From a virus (taxonomy: Duplodnaviria; Heunggongvirae; Uroviricota; Caudoviricetes): a DNA stretch of 10,810 nucleotides. Numbering within the stretch: position 1 is the first letter of the stretch; the number at the start of each line of letters is the position of its first letter. The notes under the pieces were generated by a model, which searched no databases, was not told where the DNA came from, and saw only the letters and a list, made by a program, of their open reading frames with translations. A program made the position numbers and the translations under genes. Where the stretch lies: the IMG/VR virus record IMGVR_UViG_2917886563_000002; one strand, written 5' to 3'. Below are positions 1 to 10,810 of the stretch, piece after piece.

Positions 1-470
<470 letters not shown>

Positions 471-507: not shown

Positions 508-543
508 CTCTATTCAGGTGGCCAAATTTACTATGCCACTACA
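508..543 (-). repeat. Terminal inverted repeat of the IS911-like element (outer end at 543)
   Basis: Lies upstream of the OrfA start; outer end TG (minus) / CA (plus) at 542-543; internal GAGGTGAT/ATCACCTC palindrome at 492-510. Confidence 0.7.
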
Positions 544-599
544 AATAAAACTATATTAGATTATTAATTAGATCATAATAATAATATTCTTTATATCTA

Positions 600-790
600 T
601 ATATATGATCTTTTGCCTTCCGGCGTTAGCTTCACTCCCTGGCAAGCAGCCTTACTCCGCTACCTTTGGGCTACGTTGGCTGGCCCGTTCCGCTCACACC
701 GAAAGCAAAGCGTTACTTTCTTCGTGTAACTATCGTGGCGGTAACGCCCACGAAGAAATACTATTGCGCTGTGCGCAGTAAGAGTAATCA
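600..790. other. GC-richer non-coding segment with nested inverted repeats, unassigned (candidate structured RNA or remnant of a disrupted locus)
   Basis: No ORF of useful length on either strand; local G+C clearly higher than the surrounding AT-rich DNA; contains the 10-bp arm inverted repeat at 713-762. Confidence 0.3.
713..762. repeat. Perfect 10-bp inverted repeat TTTCTTCGTG ... CACGAAGAAA with 30-nt spacer
   Basis: Read directly: tttcttcgtg at 713-722 and cacgaagaaa at 753-762. Confidence 0.7.
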
Positions 791-893
791 CCTAACCAAT
801 CATACTGATTGCTTACGTGTTAACTCTCTCTAACTCTTAATTACCCTCCTACATTTAATAACTCTCGTTATTCTCTGTAGTCGTGTAATTGTT

Positions 894-925
894 TTCGGTG
901 GAAAAGCCAGAGGCGACACCGAAAG
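894..925. repeat. 8-bp inverted repeat TTTCGGTG ... CACCGAAA, related in sequence to the 713-762 hairpin arms
   Basis: tttcggtg at 894-901 and caccgaaa at 918-925; the decamer ACACCGAAAG occurs at 696-705 and again at 916-925. Confidence 0.6.
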
Positions 926-934
926 AGAATTCTG

Positions 935-1000
935 ATCTTATTAATCTTATCTATCTTAGTTAATCTTCTTACTTATCTTACTTACTTTATCTACTTTATT
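935..1000 (+). repeat. Pyrimidine-rich tract with periodic ATCTTA hexamers (iteron-like array)
   Basis: ATCTTA at 935, 944, 953 and 975, with degenerate copies (ATCTTC, CTTACT, ATCTAC) between and after; spacing of 9 bp for the first three. Confidence 0.5.
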
Positions 1001-1507
1001 ATTAATAATAGCTTTATAAGCTCTGTGTAGCTCTCTGACGCAAGAAACAGCATTCAGGAAGGGAATCACCTTAGAAAAGGTGTTCTTTGCGTCATAATGT
1101 GTTTTATGAAGGATTCAGAGGTGTTTCATAACAGGAATGTATAGAGGATACTTTAATTAATTAAAAATAAGGGGTCTAAATGCTTCTCTAACAGCATTAA
1201 GCAGGGTAGGGAATGGAAACGCATTGTCTACATATAATAAGCTCACTACAGAGCTTTACAGAGCGTTTTTATAAAGTGACTCTCTATCTTATATCTACCA
1301 TTACCTTTTCATATACCTAACAAATACAAAATAAGCCCCTTAAATAAGCCTCTGGCGAGCTAAACAGCCATTACATAAGGGAATGTATTGCTTTTATCAA
1401 AATCTCGTTATAACGCGTTTTAGACAATAATGAAGAATGGCACTACACAGAAGAGCACGAGTTGCTCGTAAGTGCATGAAAAAGATCGATTTTTTTCGGA
1501 AGGGGTA

Positions 1508-1536
1508 TTGACAAACGTCTCTTTCTGTGCAATAAT
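1508..1536 (+). promoter_or_regulatory. Sigma70-type promoter candidate (TTGACA, 17-bp spacer, TGcAATAAT extended -10)
   Basis: ttgaca at 1508-1513; aataat at 1531-1536 preceded by tg at 1528-1529; AT-rich upstream; imperfect palindrome GCACGAGttgCTCGTaaGTGC at 1455-1475. Confidence 0.55.
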
Positions 1537-1590
1537 AGGAATTAGAGGGGACAGGAATAGATTCTTATCCTCTAAATAATTAAACCAATG

Positions 1591-1634
1591 CACCGCACTT
1601 TGAAGCCCAAGGCTTGCAAGGTGTTTTTTCTTTT
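1591..1634 (+). terminator. GC-rich stem-loop followed by T6CT4 run in the 5' leader of the first cargo gene (intrinsic terminator or attenuator candidate)
   Basis: CACCGCA...TGCaaGGTG pairing at 1591-1623 with inner AAGCC/GGCTT hairpin, then ttttttctttt at 1624-1634; lies between the 1508-1536 promoter and the SD at 1648-1654. Confidence 0.45.
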
Positions 1635-1661
1635 AACCAAATAGAATAAGGAGGCTAATTA

Positions 1662-1838
1662 ATGAAATATTTTACTCCACAGGATGTAGTAGAAGCCTGG
1701 AAACGTGGTGAGATCAACCGCTTTAAAGTAAGGATGTATAGAAACACCGCTCGCCGTTGTGGTTATCCAGAGCGTGAAAAATGTTTTGACGATGCACTGA
1801 AAATTATTGATGAACTGCGTAAAGCTGAGAAAGAATAA
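1662..1838 (+). CDS. Small basic hypothetical protein (58 aa), absent from the supplied ORF track
   Basis: ATG at 1662 preceded by AAGGAGG (1648-1654); hand translation MKYFTPQDVVEAWKRGEINRFKVRMYRNTARRCGYPEREKCFDDALKIIDELRKAEKE, stop TAA at 1836-1838. Confidence 0.6.
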   Translation: MKYFTPQDVVEAWKRGEINRFKVRMYRNTARRCGYPEREKCFDDALKIIDELRKAEKE

Positions 1839-1860
1839 TAGACAAGAGAAGGAGAAAACT

Positions 1861-2028
1861 ATGAGCGAAACTAAGAAACCAATTCCGCGCACTTACCTAC
1901 ACGTTGACCCTGAAATCTTCAAGGTTTTATTTGCTGAAGCCAAGAAAAGGCAAATTATGGTCAGTGATTTGATGTTAGAAATCATTACTGAAGCAGCAGA
2001 GAACATCAAACAAAAAAAGGGTAAGTGA
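1861..2028 (+). CDS. Small DNA-binding protein, ribbon-helix-helix-like (55 aa)
   Basis: ATG at 1861 with GAAGGAGA SD 5 nt upstream (the track's 1807 start lacks an SD). MSETKKPIPRTYLHVDPEIFKVLFAEAKKRQIMVSDLMLEIITEAAENIKQKKGK shows a polar/hydrophobic alternating strand (RTYLHV) followed by two helices, the RHH pattern. Confidence 0.6.
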   Translation: MSETKKPIPRTYLHVDPEIFKVLFAEAKKRQIMVSDLMLEIITEAAENIKQKKGK

Positions 2029-2079
2029 TCCTCATTCACTTTAGTAGCGCATTAAGCGTGATTTATAAGGAGATTTTTA

Positions 2080-2769
2080 ATGATTAATCAACTAACTTTT
2101 ACAAAACACTATGACACGTTTGATAATGTATCAAAGATTTATTCTGATAAATTCCCTCAAGGAAAAGATTTAGATCTATTACATATTGTGCTTTATTTTC
2201 GATTCCTTAGTTATCAGGAAAACAACCTTAATTGTTATGAAAGTCACGAAACATTAGCTAAGATTTTTAAGTCTTCAGCGTCAACAATTAAACGTAAGAT
2301 AAACGATCTTAAAGAGATGGGATTATTAGAAACATCCCCACATCCTGATCCGTATATTTCATCTTTGATTTACAATGCTCTCCCTCTCACAGATGCACAT
2401 ATTACTCCCCCAGGAGAATCATCACTCTCTGATCTTTCTGAGGCAGAAGAAGCACAGGAACAACCTAAAGGCCATAAACAGCCTTCTTTTGATGCTCTTG
2501 ATGATTGGGATACGCCTTTACCCTGGGAGATGGAAGAAACACCTGTTTCATCAAGTGAAAAGGTAGCTAATGATAATGAGGAGGATGTGTTAAAGAATTT
2601 TGCCTCTCTTATCATCCAGGAGAAACACACAAGAACAGGAGGAGCATCATTTATTGAGTTTGCAAATTCACTAGCTTGTAGATACGGGCTAAAACGACCA
2701 AATGGTATTGAGGCATATTTTGCTAAGAAACATCCCAAAGTATATGAAGACTTTGATATTCCATTTTAA
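2080..2769 (+). CDS. Hypothetical protein with N-terminal winged-HTH-like domain, acidic Pro-rich linker and C-terminal domain (229 aa)
   Basis: SD AAGGAG 7 nt upstream; N-terminus ...LHIVLYFRFLSYQENNLNCYESHETLAKIFKSSASTIKRKINDLKEMGLLE has the look of a wHTH of phage/plasmid replication or regulatory proteins. Confidence 0.8.
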   Translation: MINQLTFTKHYDTFDNVSKIYSDKFPQGKDLDLLHIVLYFRFLSYQENNLNCYESHETLAKIFKSSASTIKRKINDLKEMGLLETSPHPDPYISSLIYNALPLTDAHITPPGESSLSDLSEAEEAQEQPKGHKQPSFDALDDWDTPLPWEMEETPVSSSEKVANDNEEDVLKNFASLIIQEKHTRTGGASFIEFANSLACRYGLKRPNGIEAYFAKKHPKVYEDFDIPF

Positions 2770-3100: not shown

Positions 3101-3247
3101 ATGATAGTAGCTATGTATTGGTTATTGTTCTTTCTCACGTTAGAAGCATATTTCGGGGTGTTTTCCTTTAAAAGAAAAGGAAAAGTAAATGGCAAAAAGA
3201 AAAAAACAACGTTGTTAAGAAGATCGGTGATTCAGCTTCTCTTCTAA
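3101..3247 (+). CDS. Small predicted membrane peptide (48 aa): hydrophobic N-terminus, Lys/Arg-rich C-terminus; possibly the 5' part of a longer frameshifted gene
   Basis: ATG at 3101 with AAGGA about 10 nt upstream; hand translation MIVAMYWLLFFLTLEAYFGVFSFKRKGKVNGKKKKTTLLRRSVIQLLF; not in the ORF track. Confidence 0.4.
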   Translation: MIVAMYWLLFFLTLEAYFGVFSFKRKGKVNGKKKKTTLLRRSVIQLLF

Positions 3248-3360
3248 GTAAACCTAAATCTATTCTAAGACGCAAAGACTTTAAAGAGCTAGTTACGCTC
3301 ACCAAGCAAAATAGCGCCCCTGGCGAATGGAAAACAGAGATCATAGAACATTCTCCCTCT

Positions 3361-3600
3361 GTGCCTTGTGGAGATGAATTTAACGCCTTACAAGAAATCT
3401 TATCTTCAACACCTGGCGTATTCTGGAAACCCAGGAAAAGAAAAGAGTATATCGTTGATAGCTCTGATTTACGCAAATACCAGATTTTAGGATTTGAAGA
3501 TTATAATCACTACGTTGGTTATCTCGCTACCAATGGCCTAAATAATTTAGTTCCAGAATTCCAGATTTTAGATAATGCTGATCACTATGGAGACTTTTAA
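3361..3600 (+). CDS. Hypothetical protein fragment; this frame is open from 3172 with no ATG and is probably the downstream part of a gene starting at 3101
   Basis: Track ORF starts at GTG 3361 with no SD; the same frame is stop-free back to 3172 and overlaps the 3101-3247 ORF across an A-run at 3194-3206. Confidence 0.35.
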   Translation: MPCGDEFNALQEILSSTPGVFWKPRKRKEYIVDSSDLRKYQILGFEDYNHYVGYLATNGLNNLVPEFQILDNADHYGDF

Positions 3601-3601
3601 T

Positions 3602-3940
3602 ATGAACAAAAACACGTATGACACAATTTACTCACTAATTAATTATTATGAGGATGATTACCTCCTGCCTTTAAACCGCGCTGAACTTGAAGCATACAAA
3701 GAAAACACGCCAGCGGCACTAAATGAGGCGTTTAAACACTGGGATTTAGCTGTGAATGCCTTTGAGCACCTCTCTAAGCGTGTAGAGATGCTCTGTAAGC
3801 GCGAAAACGCATATCTGACAGCCGATCAGATATGGGAGCTATCAAACTGGATAGAAGATATTGAATCTGATGTTCGCTATGTAGGGGATGGCCTTGTTGA
3901 ACTCGCACAACGCTTAGGCGCTGCTATCACAGAAGAATAA
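3602..3940 (+). CDS. Acidic hypothetical protein (112 aa from ATG 3602; the track's 3575 start is less likely)
   Basis: GGAG at 3590-3593 sits 8 nt before ATG 3602; product MNKNTYDTIYSLINYYEDDYLLPLNRAELEAYKENTPAALNEAFKHWDLAVNAFEHLSK... is strongly net acidic by hand count (about 22 D/E against 10 K/R). Confidence 0.65.
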   Translation: MNKNTYDTIYSLINYYEDDYLLPLNRAELEAYKENTPAALNEAFKHWDLAVNAFEHLSKRVEMLCKRENAYLTADQIWELSNWIEDIESDVRYVGDGLVELAQRLGAAITEE

Positions 3941-3969
3941 AAAAAGCAACAAAAAAGTTGTAAAATATC

Positions 3970-3998
3970 TTGACATTTCATATATTGTATGTTAATAT
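3970..3998 (+). promoter_or_regulatory. Sigma70-type promoter candidate (TTGACA, 17-bp spacer, TGtTAATAT)
   Basis: ttgaca at 3970-3975; taatat at 3993-3998 preceded by tg at 3990-3991. Confidence 0.5.
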
Positions 3999-4132
3999 AA
4001 TTATATAGGGGTGATTATTTTTCCTTTATTGGTTCGATATTAAAAATTCTTCTTGTCGTTAAAGGGGAGTAAAATCTCCGCTCCCCGCTTCTCCTCCTTA
4101 AGTAATACTGTGTCATACCTCTTTTTTCCTTT

Positions 4133-4162
4133 GTTATGCATACATCTTGGAGTGTGCATAAC
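4133..4162. repeat. Inverted repeat GTTATGCA ... TGCATAAC (operator-like), with a third GTTATGCA copy at 4211-4218
   Basis: gttatgca at 4133-4140, tgcataac at 4155-4162, gttatgca at 4211-4218; adjacent palindrome CAACTTaaAAGTTG at 4217-4230. Confidence 0.6.
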
Positions 4163-4176
4163 ATAGGGTAATTACA

Positions 4177-5973: not shown

Positions 5974-6177
5974 ATGGAAGTGATTTTGAAATCAAAAAAT
6001 GGTGTACACGTACATTTAGATGCTAATGATTCTAGAGGCTTGTTAAATCTGAAATATCTATGTTCTCTTTTAGATGTTCCCTATGAAGGCGTAAAAGCCC
6101 GTATGTTCAGATTAAACGAGAGTATTGATCAGGCTCTACACCATTTCTTAAGCAAAGAAGGTGGTAAAAATGATTAA
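5974..6177 (+). CDS. Small hypothetical protein (67 aa)
   Basis: SD GAGGTGA 7 nt upstream of ATG 5974; stop 6 nt before the SD of the next gene. Confidence 0.6.
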   Translation: MEVILKSKNGVHVHLDANDSRGLLNLKYLCSLLDVPYEGVKARMFRLNESIDQALHHFLSKEGGKND

Positions 6178-6191
6178 TAAGGGGATTTTAA

Positions 6192-8024
6192 ATGTTAGAA
6201 ATTAACACTTCCAAGATTAAAAATACAGTAACATTTACTGTAGATAAAGACAGCTTGAAAAAAGCGAAAGACTCTATTACAGGCTTAAAGGAATTCGCAG
6301 AGAACATCAAGCCAGCTAAATTAAGATTTGATAGTGTCACTAAAGGCTATAAGAAAGCACAAAGCGAAGTAGACAAGATTGCTCAACAGAAAGCTAAAAC
6401 AGAAAAGCAAAATCAAAGAGCACAAGCTGCCGCAGCAAGAGCACAGGCAAGGCAACAGCAACAAATAGCAGCACGTAAGGAGAAGGCAAACTTAAAACTG
6501 TTAGACGTTGGATCAAGCATTAGTGCATTGCACCGCCTCTCTGTAGCGGAACAATACAAAGCTATTGCACAGGCTAGAGAGATAGCGAAACAATATGAGC
6601 AAGGGGCTATCTCGCTTGCACGTATGAATAGCCAGATGAAACGCTTACAACAGCAACAACGTAAGATTAATGGCAATAGAAAAACTCAATTAGCCCCCGT
6701 TAAGGGAGGAGGATCAGGGAATGCCGCCACTATGGGCGCTCTGTTATTTGGAGGCGCTACGGCTGCTGCTGGCGTGATGGCTGTTAGTAAAACCTCTGAA
6801 TTTATGGCTAACAGCTTTGCGAATGCTGAAACACAAGGCGAGCTAATTCAACGTGCAAGGCTTGGCGGTGTAGACGTTAACCAGATGTATAATATTACAG
6901 AATGGGCCTATAGAAACGGGATCGACTCTATGATGGGTGATCAAGGGGCTAGGAAATACCTGGATCAGATGAAAGATGTTAGGGAACGTGCCGCAAAATC
7001 CTATAGTGAAGCTGAATTAGTGAAAGATAAGAAAACAGGAAAATCTGAATGGAAAGGCGGTGATAACGCTATTAATGAACTTCTAAACATCGGTGTTATT
7101 AACAAAAGCGACCTTAAAAAATTTGCTGATAATCCAGCCGGATTAATTTCTAAGGCTGTTAATGGAATGATGAAAAAAGGGTTTTCAGACTCCCAAATTG
7201 GACAACGTTTAGAAGACCTGGGCGATGATTTGATGCTTACGTCAAAATATTGGCAACGTTCCGTTAAAGATGTACAAGAAAGCATTAACCAGCAAAAAGC
7301 CGCCGGACAATGGCTAACAGAAACACAGCAAGACTCTATTGTTAAATTCAGAGAACTAAACAGACAGCTTTCACAGCTTTCTGATGCAAGACAAGTAGCA
7401 TTCGTAGACGGCTTTATGAAATCTCTTGATCCAAAAGTAACGGAAGAGTTTATGAAAAACCTTTCTAATCTCACTCCGTATTTTACGAAGCTGGGAGAAG
7501 CTACAGGAAGTCTCTTTGAAGCCATTATGAAGATTGTAAACTGGTTTAATCGTAATGATGATAAGACAGATGCTATTCAGAAAAATATGGGTGATGCACC
7601 GCCACTATCTAACGATGGAATGAAACAGAATCTTTCTAACCTCGTTCCTGACCAATATAAAGGCGCTGGCACTGCAACAACTACACCTGATAATAGTCGT
7701 TCTCTCTTTAACACGATTAAGGGATTGCTTTTTGATGATAATTCTTCTGTGTCAGATGTAAAAATGTCAGTCAATGAAGCACCGATAACCAATCTCAAAC
7801 AGGGTGCTTTAAATAATCTTGCAATGACAACTCCGGCTTATAATTTATCTCCTGTGTTTAATCTGAATCCAACGTTTGAAGTGGTAACAGAGGTTCCGCT
7901 TACTATTAATTCTGACACGTCCAGATTAAGTGATTATGTGGATTTTACAGCGAGAGCAAGTCGGGATATCTTCTTGAAATCATTAACATTAACCAGCTTA
8001 TCAGGACAATCTAACGGCGGGTAA
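6192..8024 (+). CDS. Large hypothetical protein (610 aa): Gln/Ala-rich coiled-coil-like N-region, Gly/Ala hydrophobic segment, Asn/Ser/Thr-rich C-terminus; tape-measure-like or scaffold-like, unverified
   Basis: SD AAGGGGA upstream; segments ...KTEKQNQRAQAAAARAQARQQQQIAARKEKANLK... and ...GGGSGNAATMGALLFGGATAAAGVMAVS...; no signal peptide. Confidence 0.8.
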   Translation: MLEINTSKIKNTVTFTVDKDSLKKAKDSITGLKEFAENIKPAKLRFDSVTKGYKKAQSEVDKIAQQKAKTEKQNQRAQAAAARAQARQQQQIAARKEKANLKLLDVGSSISALHRLSVAEQYKAIAQAREIAKQYEQGAISLARMNSQMKRLQQQQRKINGNRKTQLAPVKGGGSGNAATMGALLFGGATAAAGVMAVSKTSEFMANSFANAETQGELIQRARLGGVDVNQMYNITEWAYRNGIDSMMGDQGARKYLDQMKDVRERAAKSYSEAELVKDKKTGKSEWKGGDNAINELLNIGVINKSDLKKFADNPAGLISKAVNGMMKKGFSDSQIGQRLEDLGDDLMLTSKYWQRSVKDVQESINQQKAAGQWLTETQQDSIVKFRELNRQLSQLSDARQVAFVDGFMKSLDPKVTEEFMKNLSNLTPYFTKLGEATGSLFEAIMKIVNWFNRNDDKTDAIQKNMGDAPPLSNDGMKQNLSNLVPDQYKGAGTATTTPDNSRSLFNTIKGLLFDDNSSVSDVKMSVNEAPITNLKQGALNNLAMTTPAYNLSPVFNLNPTFEVVTEVPLTINSDTSRLSDYVDFTARASRDIFLKSLTLTSLSGQSNGG

Positions 8025-8057: not shown

Positions 8058-8768
8058 ATGGCGACGGCGGGAATTTTAACCATACGTGCAGCAAATACTC
8101 CAGAACAACACGTTCAGGCTGTTTACAAAGCAGAACAAGATATAAACTCTACAAAAAACGAAAATAGCAAAGCTAATAAAACAAAAGGAGAAAATGGATT
8201 TGCTATTGTCACCAGTGGGCTGGCATCTTCTGTAAGTGACGTTTATGAAAATTATATGGCGTTATCCTTTGACAGTGTTGACGATGTGAACGTGAGACGT
8301 TCGGCAGATGTCACAAGCTATCCTGTAGAAAATGGAGCTAATGTATCGGATCACGTTCAAGTTAAGAATAATAAGTTTGCTCTTAAAGGGCGTATCTCTG
8401 AAACACCGATTAAAAGCGATCCTGGCTTGTTAAAGAGTGCAGGGGTGAACGGGAACAGAAGATCATTAGCTATCGACTACCTGAATCAGATTATGGACAG
8501 TAGACAGCCTTTTCTTCTTGTTACAGAAAATAAAACTTTTGAGAACGTTGTTTTAACAGGCATCGAATACACAGAAGAGGCAAGCGAATCTCTGGTATTT
8601 GATTTGGAATTTGAGCAAATCAGATTAGTTTCTTATGGCACTGTAAACACTGTAGCTATCAAAACACAGCCATCTAAGAACATCGGGGCTAATATGAAAA
8701 AACGTGTTAACACTGAAAAAACAAGTGAAGGTGAAGACACTATTACTCCTGCCTTTAAGCAGGAATAG
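8058..8768 (+). CDS. Hypothetical protein (236 aa); possible virion or tail-associated protein, unverified
   Basis: SD AAGGA 10 nt upstream; immediately follows the 610-aa gene; a stem-loop follows the stop. Confidence 0.75.
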   Translation: MATAGILTIRAANTPEQHVQAVYKAEQDINSTKNENSKANKTKGENGFAIVTSGLASSVSDVYENYMALSFDSVDDVNVRRSADVTSYPVENGANVSDHVQVKNNKFALKGRISETPIKSDPGLLKSAGVNGNRRSLAIDYLNQIMDSRQPFLLVTENKTFENVVLTGIEYTEEASESLVFDLEFEQIRLVSYGTVNTVAIKTQPSKNIGANMKKRVNTEKTSEGEDTITPAFKQE

Positions 8769-8849: not shown

Positions 8850-9848
8850 CTATGGCGTTGTTTTACGCCTTAAATTTGATTTTTTATTGATTGATAAGCC
8901 TTTCTCTATTTCAGGGTAGCGTAGAAGCTCAATATATTTTTTAAGCTCTACTGGAGAAGCTGCATTCTTGCTATATGTGCGGAATGTCTCTGTATTGCCG
9001 CGTGTATGGCCCAGGAGAAGGGCGATCCTGTCTTCTGGAATTTGATTTCGATCAAGAAGCTGTGCTACTCCGTGTCTCAGAGAATGAAACACCTTCCTTT
9101 CTGTTCCCTTTTCCCCTAAAGCCTTTCGTTTAGCTCTTGTAAATCTCTGCGTGTGCCACGTGGAACGTTTACCATCAGCACGCTCTGTAATGCTGGCGTG
9201 ATAGAACAAAAAGCCATTGTGAGGCTTTTCACGAAGAGATAACACCAACGGAGTGATAAGGCTATGTACAGGCACAAGACGTGCCGCAGCTTTCGTTTTT
9301 CCCTGTGTGATTTCAAAACACAGCACACCTTCGATCTCTTTCACATCGTCTATTGTGAGACTTGCTATCTCATTGATCCGCATACCTGTATATAAACCGA
9401 TAAGACACAAAGCCGTCATTTCTTTGTTTTCTGCTGAATTACCGGAAAATACTTGCAACACCTGCAATAGCTCTTTGTTAGAAAATGCCTCATAGCTCTC
9501 TCTACTTTGTGCCACATCAAGCCTATGCCCTCGCCAGGGGGAGAGCGCCCTTTCTGGCGCATCGTGGTAACGTGATGAAGCTAACTCCCATAGCTGGGCC
9601 ATTGGGCTGATATAATTTGCAATTGATTGTTGTGAAAGGGTTTTTTGCATGCGTTCTATCCAGCCTGTAACAGTGGTGCGGCTCACATCTTGCAATGCAA
9701 TATCAGGCTTTTTACGGTAGGAGAGAAACATCTCTACCGCTTTTCTTGCCTTAGCTAAAGTGGCTGGCTTCTTCTTCGTGCTGTTAATTGTCAGGTAGAT
9801 TTCAAGAATTTTAAGCAATGACGGACACGAAGACGCTGTATCTTGCAT
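8850..9848 (-). CDS. Tyrosine site-specific recombinase (integrase), 332 aa
   Basis: Catalytic-domain signature in order: Arg in ...LYTGMRINEIASL..., H-x-x-R in ...FHSLRHGVAQLL..., ...LLGHTRG..., and Tyr in ...TFRTYSK...; N-terminal region ...LEIYLTINSTKKKPATLAKARKAVEMFLSY... resembles a core-binding domain. Confidence 0.9.
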   Translation of the reverse strand: MQDTASSCPSLLKILEIYLTINSTKKKPATLAKARKAVEMFLSYRKKPDIALQDVSRTTVTGWIERMQKTLSQQSIANYISPMAQLWELASSRYHDAPERALSPWRGHRLDVAQSRESYEAFSNKELLQVLQVFSGNSAENKEMTALCLIGLYTGMRINEIASLTIDDVKEIEGVLCFEITQGKTKAAARLVPVHSLITPLVLSLREKPHNGFLFYHASITERADGKRSTWHTQRFTRAKRKALGEKGTERKVFHSLRHGVAQLLDRNQIPEDRIALLLGHTRGNTETFRTYSKNAASPVELKKYIELLRYPEIEKGLSINKKSNLRRKTTP

Positions 9849-9925
9849 TCTGGTAGCTGTTTTGGCGTATTTAGCCTTACTTCGTAACAGTTCCAGCGTG
9901 TTCTCTATTGTGCTGTTTACAGGAG

Positions 9926-10810
9926 TGATCTTGACCCGCTATCTCCGGACCGCTTTTGTATCTTAAGTTAACGATGCCCGCTGCCGCCGGTATTCCCTCG
10001 GAGAGTAATATCCCAGCGCGCTGTGCGGGTGGTTTTCATTGTAATGCGTGAACGCTGCTGCAAGGTTTTGCAGGGCTGTTCTCACATCCGGTTTTGGCAT
10101 GAACGCGATATAGTCTTCTTTCATCGTCTTCACGAACCGTTCGGCCATGCCATTACTCTGCGGACTGCTCACCGCTGTTGTACAGGGTTCAAGATTCAGC
10201 TCTCTGGCGAACCTCCGCGTTTCATGCGCAGTATACGCTGAACCGTTATCCGTCAACCACTGCACTGGTGTGTCCGGCAACCTGTCGCCGAAGCGCTTTT
10301 CCACCGACCTCAGCATCACATCCTGTACGGTCGAACTGTCGTAGCCTCCCGTGCTCGCTGCCCAGTCTATGGCCTCTCTGTCGCAGCAGTCCAGCGCGAA
10401 CGTCACCCGCAGTTTTTCACCGTTGTCGCAGCCGAACTCGAAGCCGTCTGAACACCAGCGCATATTGCTTTCTGCCACCGCGATTTTTCCCTTGTGTTCA
10501 CGCTTCGGTCGCTCTGGTTTGTCATGCAACAACAACAGGTTATGCTCGCTCATTATCCTGTAAAGTCGTTTGGCGTTCACCGGTGGCTCTCCCTCAGTGC
10601 GACGTTGCTTGCGCAGGATGCCCCACACGCGTCGATAACCATAACTCGGCATATCGCTGATGATATCGAGGATATCCGTCAGTATTTCAGCGTCTGCTTC
10701 GTCATTACGCCGGTTACAGCGCCTGTCCTGCCAGTCGGCAGAACGGTTAACTCGCAGTGACAGCTGCGCACGCGACACGCCCATGGTGCGGCTGACCAGG
10801 GCTATTCCCC
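9926..10810 (-). mobile_element. IS3-family insertion sequence, IS2-like, partial (OrfA side runs off the right window edge)
   Basis: Minus-strand end reads ...GGCGGCAGCGGGCATCGTTAACTTAAGATACAAAAGCGGTCCGGAGATAGCGGGTCAAGATCA, the same pattern as the IS2 right end as recalled; G+C rises at 9926; encodes an IS2 OrfB-like transposase. Confidence 0.88.
9963..10784 (-). CDS. IS3-family (IS2 group) transposase OrfB, DDE catalytic domain
   Basis: ...[13 protein letters not shown]...RWCSDGFEF...[13 protein letters not shown]...[11 protein letters not shown]...[11 protein letters not shown]...[12 protein letters not shown]; D, D and E motif residues present; frame continues upstream past 10784 toward the window edge. 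Confidence 0.92.

Follow-up and report, generated by a model that had tools for sequence, protein, structure and literature searches.

Two small conserved genes behind a predicted terminated leader at the head of an operon in phage-related islands of Escherichia coli

Genes for small ribbon-helix-helix (RHH) proteins of about 45–56 aa are located directly upstream of replication-initiator genes, and co-transcribed with them, in the CopG-RepB cassette of plasmid pMV158 and in the ORF56-ORF904 pair of the Sulfolobus plasmid pRN1. In the immI region of phage P22 the 53-aa RHH repressor Arc represses an operon whose first gene is its own. Here we describe two small genes, g1 and g2, in a 10,810-nt stretch of viral DNA (Caudoviricetes, IMG/VR record IMGVR_UViG_2917886563_000002; in the following, the window is this whole stretch). 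As in the plasmid cassettes, the second gene, g2, stands directly upstream of a gene resembling phage replication initiators, on the same strand and separated by a 51-nt spacer, and both CopG and ORF56 are among its structural matches. Unlike in these cassettes, the island RHH gene is preceded by a further small gene, g1, and by a terminated leader. On balance we favour the view of g2 as a dimeric repressor of the CopG/ORF56/Arc kind, whose gene is transcribed together with the initiator-like gene behind the terminated leader, with g1 as a co-regulator. We infer that g2 would dimerise, bind DNA and repress its own operon, and we treat any role of g1 in the same conditional way. The two genes, their Shine-Dalgarno (SD) sequences and the open reading frames (ORFs) competing with them are arranged as follows:

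1662–1838, plus strand: g1, 58 aa, three-helix protein of pI 9.3, member of a small island-specific family
1861–2028, plus strand: g2, 55 aa, predicted RHH fold
1647–1654, plus strand: SD of g1 (TAAGGAGG), anti-SD duplex −12.2 kcal/mol
1849–1854, plus strand: SD of g2 (AAGGAG), duplex −8.8 kcal/mol
1659–1892, minus strand: spurious ORF antisense to g1, 77 aa, with stops in 12 of 14 orthologues
1807–1860, plus strand: spurious 5' extension of g2 from a mechanical TTG start, without SD

g1 and g2 are two real and conserved genes. The region holding them is present in 705 of 5,426 complete E. coli genomes (~13%), at 68–99.7% nucleotide identity and with up to three copies per genome. Thirteen E. 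coli loci were fetched across this span of identities; the coding tests compared 14 distinct g1 sequences and 12 g2 orthologues. The g1 frame is open in all 14, its pooled ratio of nonsynonymous to synonymous polymorphism (pN/pS) is 0.25, and the variable columns are distributed 25/16/43 over the three codon positions, the third being the richest. The minus-strand frame 1659–1892, for which pN/pS is 0.80, is interrupted by one to three stops in 12 of the 14 sequences and is therefore spurious, as a preliminary description of this DNA had stated; as a real gene it is ruled out. g1 does not appear in the mechanical ORF track because the ORF lister has a default minimum of 60 aa. What the track does show is the overlapping minus-strand frame and a 73-aa plus-strand frame, 1807–2028, with a TTG start. 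Hence, the designation of g1 as a missing gene is correct for this track only: RefSeq already annotates g1 as a hypothetical protein (WP_021543225.1 or WP_000873455.1) and likewise g2 (WP_000005056.1, a 168-nt gene).

The SD of g1, 7 nt before the ATG, is the strongest among 14 gene starts tested, followed by that of orf92 (−11.6 kcal/mol), in line with its earlier ranking as the best in the window. An AAGGAG-type SD is kept upstream of g1 in most orthologues. For g2, the preliminary description had preferred ATG 1861 to TTG 1807. This start is also the one called by PGAP, and the TTG gives no SD duplex (+0.3 kcal/mol). Furthermore, the arrangement GAAGGAGAAAACT-ATG is kept in all 12 g2 orthologues, including an allele at 46% protein identity, and in five of them an in-frame stop is found 4–6 codons upstream of the ATG, without an alternative start. 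TTG 1807 is thereby ruled out. With regard to start codons in the g1 family, we also observed GTG, CTG (the source's call) and TTG at L005 6117, L016 7001, L018 5583 and L019 7001 (L numbers designate the compared loci), with the N-terminus M(K/R)YF and a strong SD kept.

The assignment of g2 as an RHH protein is supported at the level of the predicted fold. In the AlphaFold2 (AF2) monomer model (pLDDT 84) an extended N-terminus leads into helices at residues 17–29 and 34–53, which fits the RHH layout of an N-terminal strand and two helices joined by a short turn; DSSP calls no strand in the monomer. Nearly all of the top 50 Foldseek matches in the PDB are RHH proteins, with probabilities up to 0.98 and TM-scores of 0.6–0.74. 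They comprise Arc, CopA_SO, MazE-mt9, VapB, ParG, CdbA, ORF56, TacA, AtaR, CopG, NikR and HicB. The top match is Arc (1par_A, probability 0.96), at a sequence identity of only ~16%. A PDB profile search gave a weak match to the antitoxin chain 7e4j with a typical RHH alignment, and in profile searches the family reaches Enterobacter, Klebsiella aerogenes and Dryocola. The likeness to Arc and Mnt of P22 immI is thus one of fold, and differs from it in the low identity, in an unrelated operon content and in the lack of an antirepressor gene in the island. From the CopG cassette the locus is further distinguished in that g2 has no Pfam RHH_1/CopG match at threshold, no operator overlapping the promoter was identified and no antisense RNA was found. 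Both small proteins had been called basic, which holds in a mild form, with a pI of 9.30 for g1 (15 K/R vs 11 D/E) and of 9.40 for g2.

The position of g2 is occupied by different alleles in different islands. In the E. coli loci L005, L013 and L014 no g2 is found by tblastn, and an ORF of 58–62 aa (MNINFDSATYNALLNRAKAEGKSIPKLVNELL...) fills its slot. The g2-slot proteins of L005 and L015 have sub-threshold Pfam matches to RHH_4, FitA-like, Antitox_RHH and HicB. The slot is always filled by an RHH-like gene, and three or more allelic types exist. Alleles A and B are found behind one leader type and in front of one downstream gene type and therefore reassort freely; apart from allele C, no co-variation of the g2 allele with the promoter type or with the downstream DNA-binding domain was detected. 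As a side observation, the RHH-like slot ORFs (MNINFDSATYNALL...) at L005 6317–6505, L013 ~3862–4050 and L014 3793–3969 overlap the start of the next gene and are unannotated in RefSeq.

Many of the structural matches of g2, namely MazE-mt9, CopA_SO, VapB, TacA, AtaR and HicB, are RHH antitoxins, and together with the match to 7e4j they could suggest a type II toxin-antitoxin pair which stabilises the island, with g2 as antitoxin and g1 or the next gene as toxin. We regard this as highly improbable, because neither g1 nor the downstream HTH_36 gene (orf229) matches a toxin family in Pfam, NCBIfam, PHROGs or PADLOC and because the g2 alleles are exchanged independently of both neighbours. Moreover, with 55 aa there is no room for a C-terminal toxin-binding extension past the RHH core, and two lytic phages, described below, have g2 without g1.

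For g1 the AF2 model (pLDDT 87) is all-helical, with helices at residues 6–15, 20–33 and 36–57. A HMMER profile search against 1.84 billion representative sequences returned 30 matches in total, about 12 of which are proteins of 58–63 aa or longer gene calls embedding the g1 module. Homologues called at 58–63 aa begin with M(K/R)YF, and throughout the family G16 and R38 are the sole invariant residues; the C-terminal tail varies through (A/S)E(K/T)E-type repeats. Searches of Pfam, PHROGs, NCBIfam, PADLOC and PDB profiles gave nothing meaningful for g1, nor did Foldseek against the PDB (best E-value 2.5). The best structural neighbours, in BFVD, are small uncharacterised phage proteins (TM-score up to 0.89). 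Three candidate assignments were discarded: a sub-threshold Sushi_2 match, which is implausible in a bacterial protein; an RHH_1 match on the g1 relative P0065 (residues 29–49), which is below threshold, occurs in one of 14 members and maps to helices 2–3 and not to a strand-helix-helix; and a helix-turn-helix (HTH), for which the pattern match by eye is imperfect and Foldseek gives no HTH structure. As g1 is unlike any characterised protein, no function can be assigned to it via homology. Its interpretation as a second regulator comes from its position, since it is always placed directly after the leader.

The region upstream of g1 contains the following elements:

1453–1467, strand not assigned: conserved inverted repeat GAGCA-N5-TGCTC, candidate operator
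1508–1536, plus strand: sigma-70-type promoter, TTGACA, 17 nt, TG-n-AATAAT (extended −10)
1546–1573, plus strand: 5' hairpin of the leader RNA in the minimum free energy fold
1595–1635, plus strand: predicted intrinsic terminator, a 12–13 bp stem with one bulged G, then TTTTTTCTTTT

The promoter agrees with the sigma-70 consensus in 11 of 12 positions and has the TG in addition. Its −35 element TTGACAAA shows no variation among the 14 E. coli loci and recurs in L016–L019; the −10 element varies across the loci, with a TGnTAnnnT-like shape kept. An RNA starting at ~1543 would form a leader of ~90 nt, consisting of the 5' hairpin, an A/U-rich spacer and the hairpin with the bulged G, followed by UUUUUUCUUUU. 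The same fold is predicted in 13 loci. The 5' hairpin differs in sequence but keeps its position in seven of eight leader types (z −1.9 to −4.0 vs shuffled sequences) and is absent in L016. For the 3' hairpin, each of the six loci that were folded gave an energy between −15.5 and −17.1 kcal/mol, and its stem is nearly invariant over the 14 E. coli loci and the distant islands L016–L019. Covariation is seen as one compensatory change from U-A to A-U in L018 and as a paired A-U insertion in the E. coli type. With a stable, G+C-containing hairpin directly followed by a U-run, the element has the features of a Rho-independent terminator and would presumably act as one in vivo; a simple terminator scanner missed it, possibly owing to the bulged G. 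The distance from the U-run to the g1 SD is just ~12 nt; g1, g2 and the rest of the operon would hence depend on read-through or antitermination. The preliminary description had placed both genes at the operon head. They are indeed the first two cistrons, but the transcript would begin ~120 nt upstream, and a conserved promoter and intrinsic terminator precede g1.

Promoters followed by early termination are known from other phages and satellites. In the lambdoid PR'-tR' arrangement (6S RNA and Q antitermination; the StxS small RNA of Stx phages) a strong, constitutive-looking promoter is likewise followed by an intrinsic terminator within ~100 nt and by a long structural-gene operon beyond. 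In contrast to lambda PR'-tR' as it is generally known, no Q-like gene or Q-binding element was identified here, and the −35 to −10 region varies among island types. The left operon of the satellite P4 (PLE promoter, leader, CI RNA immunity) is similar in that premature termination within a structured leader controls entry into an early or replication operon of a satellite-type element. The island differs from P4 in that no window protein gave a match named Sid, Psu, Delta or alpha primase, and in having no Rfam match and no above-chance leader complement. Pairing of the leader with downstream island RNA in the manner of P4 CI was rejected: the longest complement in the island transcripts is 9 nt, and 175 of 200 shuffled leaders reach 9 nt or more. 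An invertible promoter switched by the nearby small recombinases was also discarded, as no convincing flanking inverted repeats were found and the orientation is the same in 14 of 14 loci.

With its 5' hairpin, A/U-rich spacer and terminator, the leader has the architecture of a small RNA, and no other non-coding stretch of the region is as conserved. One might therefore consider it a stand-alone small RNA, with g1 and g2 as minor by-products of read-through. This appears improbable to us: g1 and g2 are under purifying selection and have strong, conserved SDs, while Rfam gave no match for the leader, searched with the window and three related loci, and the island transcripts hold no complement to it above chance. 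Besides, a small RNA would be compatible with the regulator reading and not exclusive of it.

According to the reading of g2 as a repressor, transcription would begin at the near-consensus promoter 1508–1536 and proceed through g1, g2, the HTH_36 initiator-like gene and several small genes to the genes for a lambda-E-type capsid protein, a tape-measure-like protein and a Dit-like protein. The ~90-nt leader, with its 5' hairpin, A/U-rich spacer and strong intrinsic terminator, would be made first, and only read-through or antiterminated polymerases would get to g1 and g2. g2 would then act like CopG, ORF56 or Arc, that is, as a dimeric DNA-binding repressor feeding back on the operon, and g1 would be a second regulator of the same switch, with DNA, the leader RNA or a protein as possible targets. 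From the range of functions that the preliminary description had offered for such proteins, a repressor or regulator is the best fit for the RHH protein; the other choices (antitoxin, partition or excision factor) are unlikely. Its gene calls, the dismissal of the antisense ORF, the start at ATG 1861 and the RHH-like nature of the 55-mer have all been upheld, and its list of functions only in part.

Several observations weigh against this reading. No Pfam RHH model reaches its threshold for g2 or its 13 aligned homologues, nor did g2 give a match at or near the curated threshold in Pfam, PHROGs, NCBIfam or PADLOC. The RHH assignment therefore depends on the monomer AF2 model and on Foldseek matches with E-values of 0.1–1.5; individually these values are weak (0.13–1.5 for g2), since the protein has only 55 residues. 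g1 has no similarity to any characterised regulator or other protein in sequence and structure searches. No operator of g2 was identified; the repeat GAGCA-N5-TGCTC is a candidate. It is located ~80 bp upstream of the inferred transcription start, with its AGCACGAATTGCT core conserved in the 14-locus alignment, and the same core is found just upstream of the −35 element of the second g1 paralogue in the distant island L015. This island lacks the conserved terminator, yet carries g1 paralogues. Finally, g2 alleles A and B share one leader/promoter type and one downstream HTH_36 type; specificity therefore tracks neither neighbour, whereas simple autoregulation predicts that it should. Regarding L015 itself, its two paralogues lie at 3933–4163 and 6001–6189, neither with the conserved leader terminator; downstream of the head copy come an RHH-like gene and a helicase-like one, and the second paralogue has its own promoter.

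The g1/g2 pair heads related islands in Escherichia and in the more distant genomes L015–L019. Four distant g1 homologues could be traced to contigs, and each is located in an island of the same architecture: on the other strand a recombinase gene, of the small serine or the short tyrosine type, then a gap of 1.3–2 kb, g1, an RHH-like gene of 52–58 aa, an HTH_36 or helicase-like gene, small genes, and then the genes for a Phage_cap_E capsid protein, a protein of ~600 aa and a Dit-like protein. In the window, the corresponding genes downstream of g2 are:

2080–2769, plus strand: HTH_36 initiator-like gene, 229 aa
4859–5887, strand not given: capsid gene
6192–8024, strand not given: gene of the 610-aa tape-measure-like protein
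8058–8768, strand not given: Dit-like gene

The label initiator-like for the 229-aa gene combines a match to PHROG 270 (replication initiation protein, E-value 3.6e-9) with a Pfam HTH_36 match that falls just short of the cut-off (E-value 2.7e-5). Family matches of the window proteins are restricted to Phage_cap_E, Dit_like, HTH_36 and tyrosine recombinase; these scans gave no match for terminase, portal or protease and none named as a P4 marker. The marker gene sets of the known phage-satellite families (P4-like, PICI, cfPICI, PLE), such as Sid/Psu/Delta/alpha for P4-like elements or small terminase, portal, protease and connectors for cfPICI, were not found among the window proteins, and no account of such islands turned up in the literature searched; a paper on Tai tail interference proved unrelated to it. 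The island is phage-related and integrative, and apparently belongs to an undescribed family.

Small basic proteins encoded beside recombinase genes are often excisionases, and ParG is among the RHH matches of g2, so that g1 and/or g2 might be recombination directionality factors, or g2 a ParG-like partition factor. We regard this as very unlikely. Excision is disfavoured because recombinases of several kinds accompany the same g1 and g2 types, namely serine recombinases, short tyrosine recombinases, and either a 406-aa integrase or another integrase 34% identical to it, and because neither model is a winged-helix Xis/AlpA fold: g1 is all-helical without HTH or winged-helix match in the PDB, and g2 is RHH. 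Partition is disfavoured because no ParA-type ATPase was found among the window proteins scanned.

Some further features of the island were noted. In all relatives, ~2 kb of unannotated, conserved non-coding DNA lie between the small recombinase gene and g1 (L008 1670–3667), of which window positions 543–1643 correspond to the right part. The 2-kb region holds 13 TTACAC motifs vs 1.3 expected, in plus orientation to the left and mostly in minus orientation to the right of an AT-rich centre, as well as five iteron-like repeats of the form GTAACG..CGTTAC; an origin or a site of recombination may be located here. Fragments of the insertion sequence family IS3 border the window's island copy, the left one being an HTH_Tnp_1 OrfA and the right one an rve OrfB. 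The positions noted for these fragments and the tyrosine integrase are:

159–470, minus strand: feature on the left side
~543, strand not given: point where the left fragment cuts the non-coding region in its AT-rich centre
8850–9908, minus strand: feature on the right side
9963–10784, minus strand: feature on the right side

The tyrosine integrase of the window lacks ~74 N-terminal residues, being truncated by IS3-family fragments, and is 34% identical to the integrase of the L001 island, which is otherwise 97% identical. At 3190–3600 a 135-aa island gene has an open orthologue, without ATG, GTG or TTG at the expected start; the first start codon in frame is GTG 3361, and the proper one may have been lost in this copy.

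The structural genes of the island point to virulent myoviruses of the phi92/phAPEC8 type. Identity to Phi92_gp135 is 62% for the Dit-like protein; the 610-aa protein shares 27% identity with tape-measure proteins of Stephanstirmvirinae, and the Phage_cap_E capsid protein is only 21–26% identical to capsid proteins of rV5-like phages and Pakpunavirus. A further link is provided by g2 itself, through one segment:

1849–2090, plus strand: segment common to virulent phages, 242 nt, running from the g2 SD through g2 and the spacer into the first 11 nt of the following gene

Over these 242 nt the window is 99.2% identical to Escherichia phage muut (L020, MN850573, 8989–9230) and 98.3% identical to phage inny (L021), both members of Justusliebigvirus. 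The ~1.2-kb cassette holding g2 is absent from most other Justusliebigvirus genomes; relatives without it include phi92, cardinal and alia. In muut and inny, as in the island, g2 is directly upstream of an HTH_36 gene. In the two phages this gene (muut_154, at 9220–10218 of muut) encodes 332 aa with two HTH_36 domains, 88–89% identical to the DNA-binding domains of the initiator-like proteins of L012 (4101–4763) and L005 (6441–7109), and with a C-terminal MUG113/T5orf172-like match that is borderline (22.5 bits vs a cut-off of 22.3). By sequence, g2 would behave as a self-contained, transferable unit. Its identity of 98–99% in muut and inny indicates, therefore, that island and phage meet and recombine, and the presence of nearly identical g2 in two lytic phages hints that the two sides are still in conflict.

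These links could also mean that g1 and g2 are effectors directed against a helper or target phage, for example an RHH protein repressing phi92-like promoters and a g1 protein binding a phage or host protein; CapR of PLE is said to repress the capsid genes of ICP1 in this manner. The relatedness of the Dit-like and the 610-aa protein to those phages, the g2 copies in muut and inny, and the small phage proteins as nearest structures of g1 would all agree with it. Nevertheless, we think this unlikely, though worth keeping in mind: g1 and g2 come first after the island's own promoter and upstream of the initiator-like gene, the typical place of a self-regulator, and no phage operator or target is known.

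A more far-reaching combination, which we offer as speculation of low probability, is that satellite-like islands of an undescribed family parasitise, or defend against, phi92/phAPEC8-like myoviruses (Stephanstirmvirinae), and that g1, g2 and the terminated leader are together their control switch. Before infection by a phage, the leader terminator and the RHH repressor would silence the operon, and muut and inny would counter with the captured g2 and muut_154. A possible parallel is the arms race of PLE and ICP1 in Vibrio cholerae, in which Odn of ICP1 is reportedly an origin-directed nuclease: here, too, a virulent myovirus gene joins island-type DNA-binding domains to a putative MUG113/T5orf172-type domain, beside the island-derived g2. 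If this were true, the phage-borne g2 could be a repressor mimic silencing the island, and muut_154 an island-directed nuclease and the E. coli counterpart of ICP1 Odn.

Taken alone, the two genes represent an ordinary correction of the annotation, as both are already hypothetical proteins in RefSeq and one start codon has been settled. Their meaning lies in the family to which they belong. Islands of this family, of which the g1/g2 pair is a conserved core, occur in ~13% of the complete E. coli genomes, and g1 is a well-modelled small protein family without a known relative. The arrangement of promoter, terminated leader, g1 and RHH gene is the obvious place to look for the event that switches these islands on, and the conflict between island and phage that is hinted at by the g2 copies of muut and inny is directly testable.

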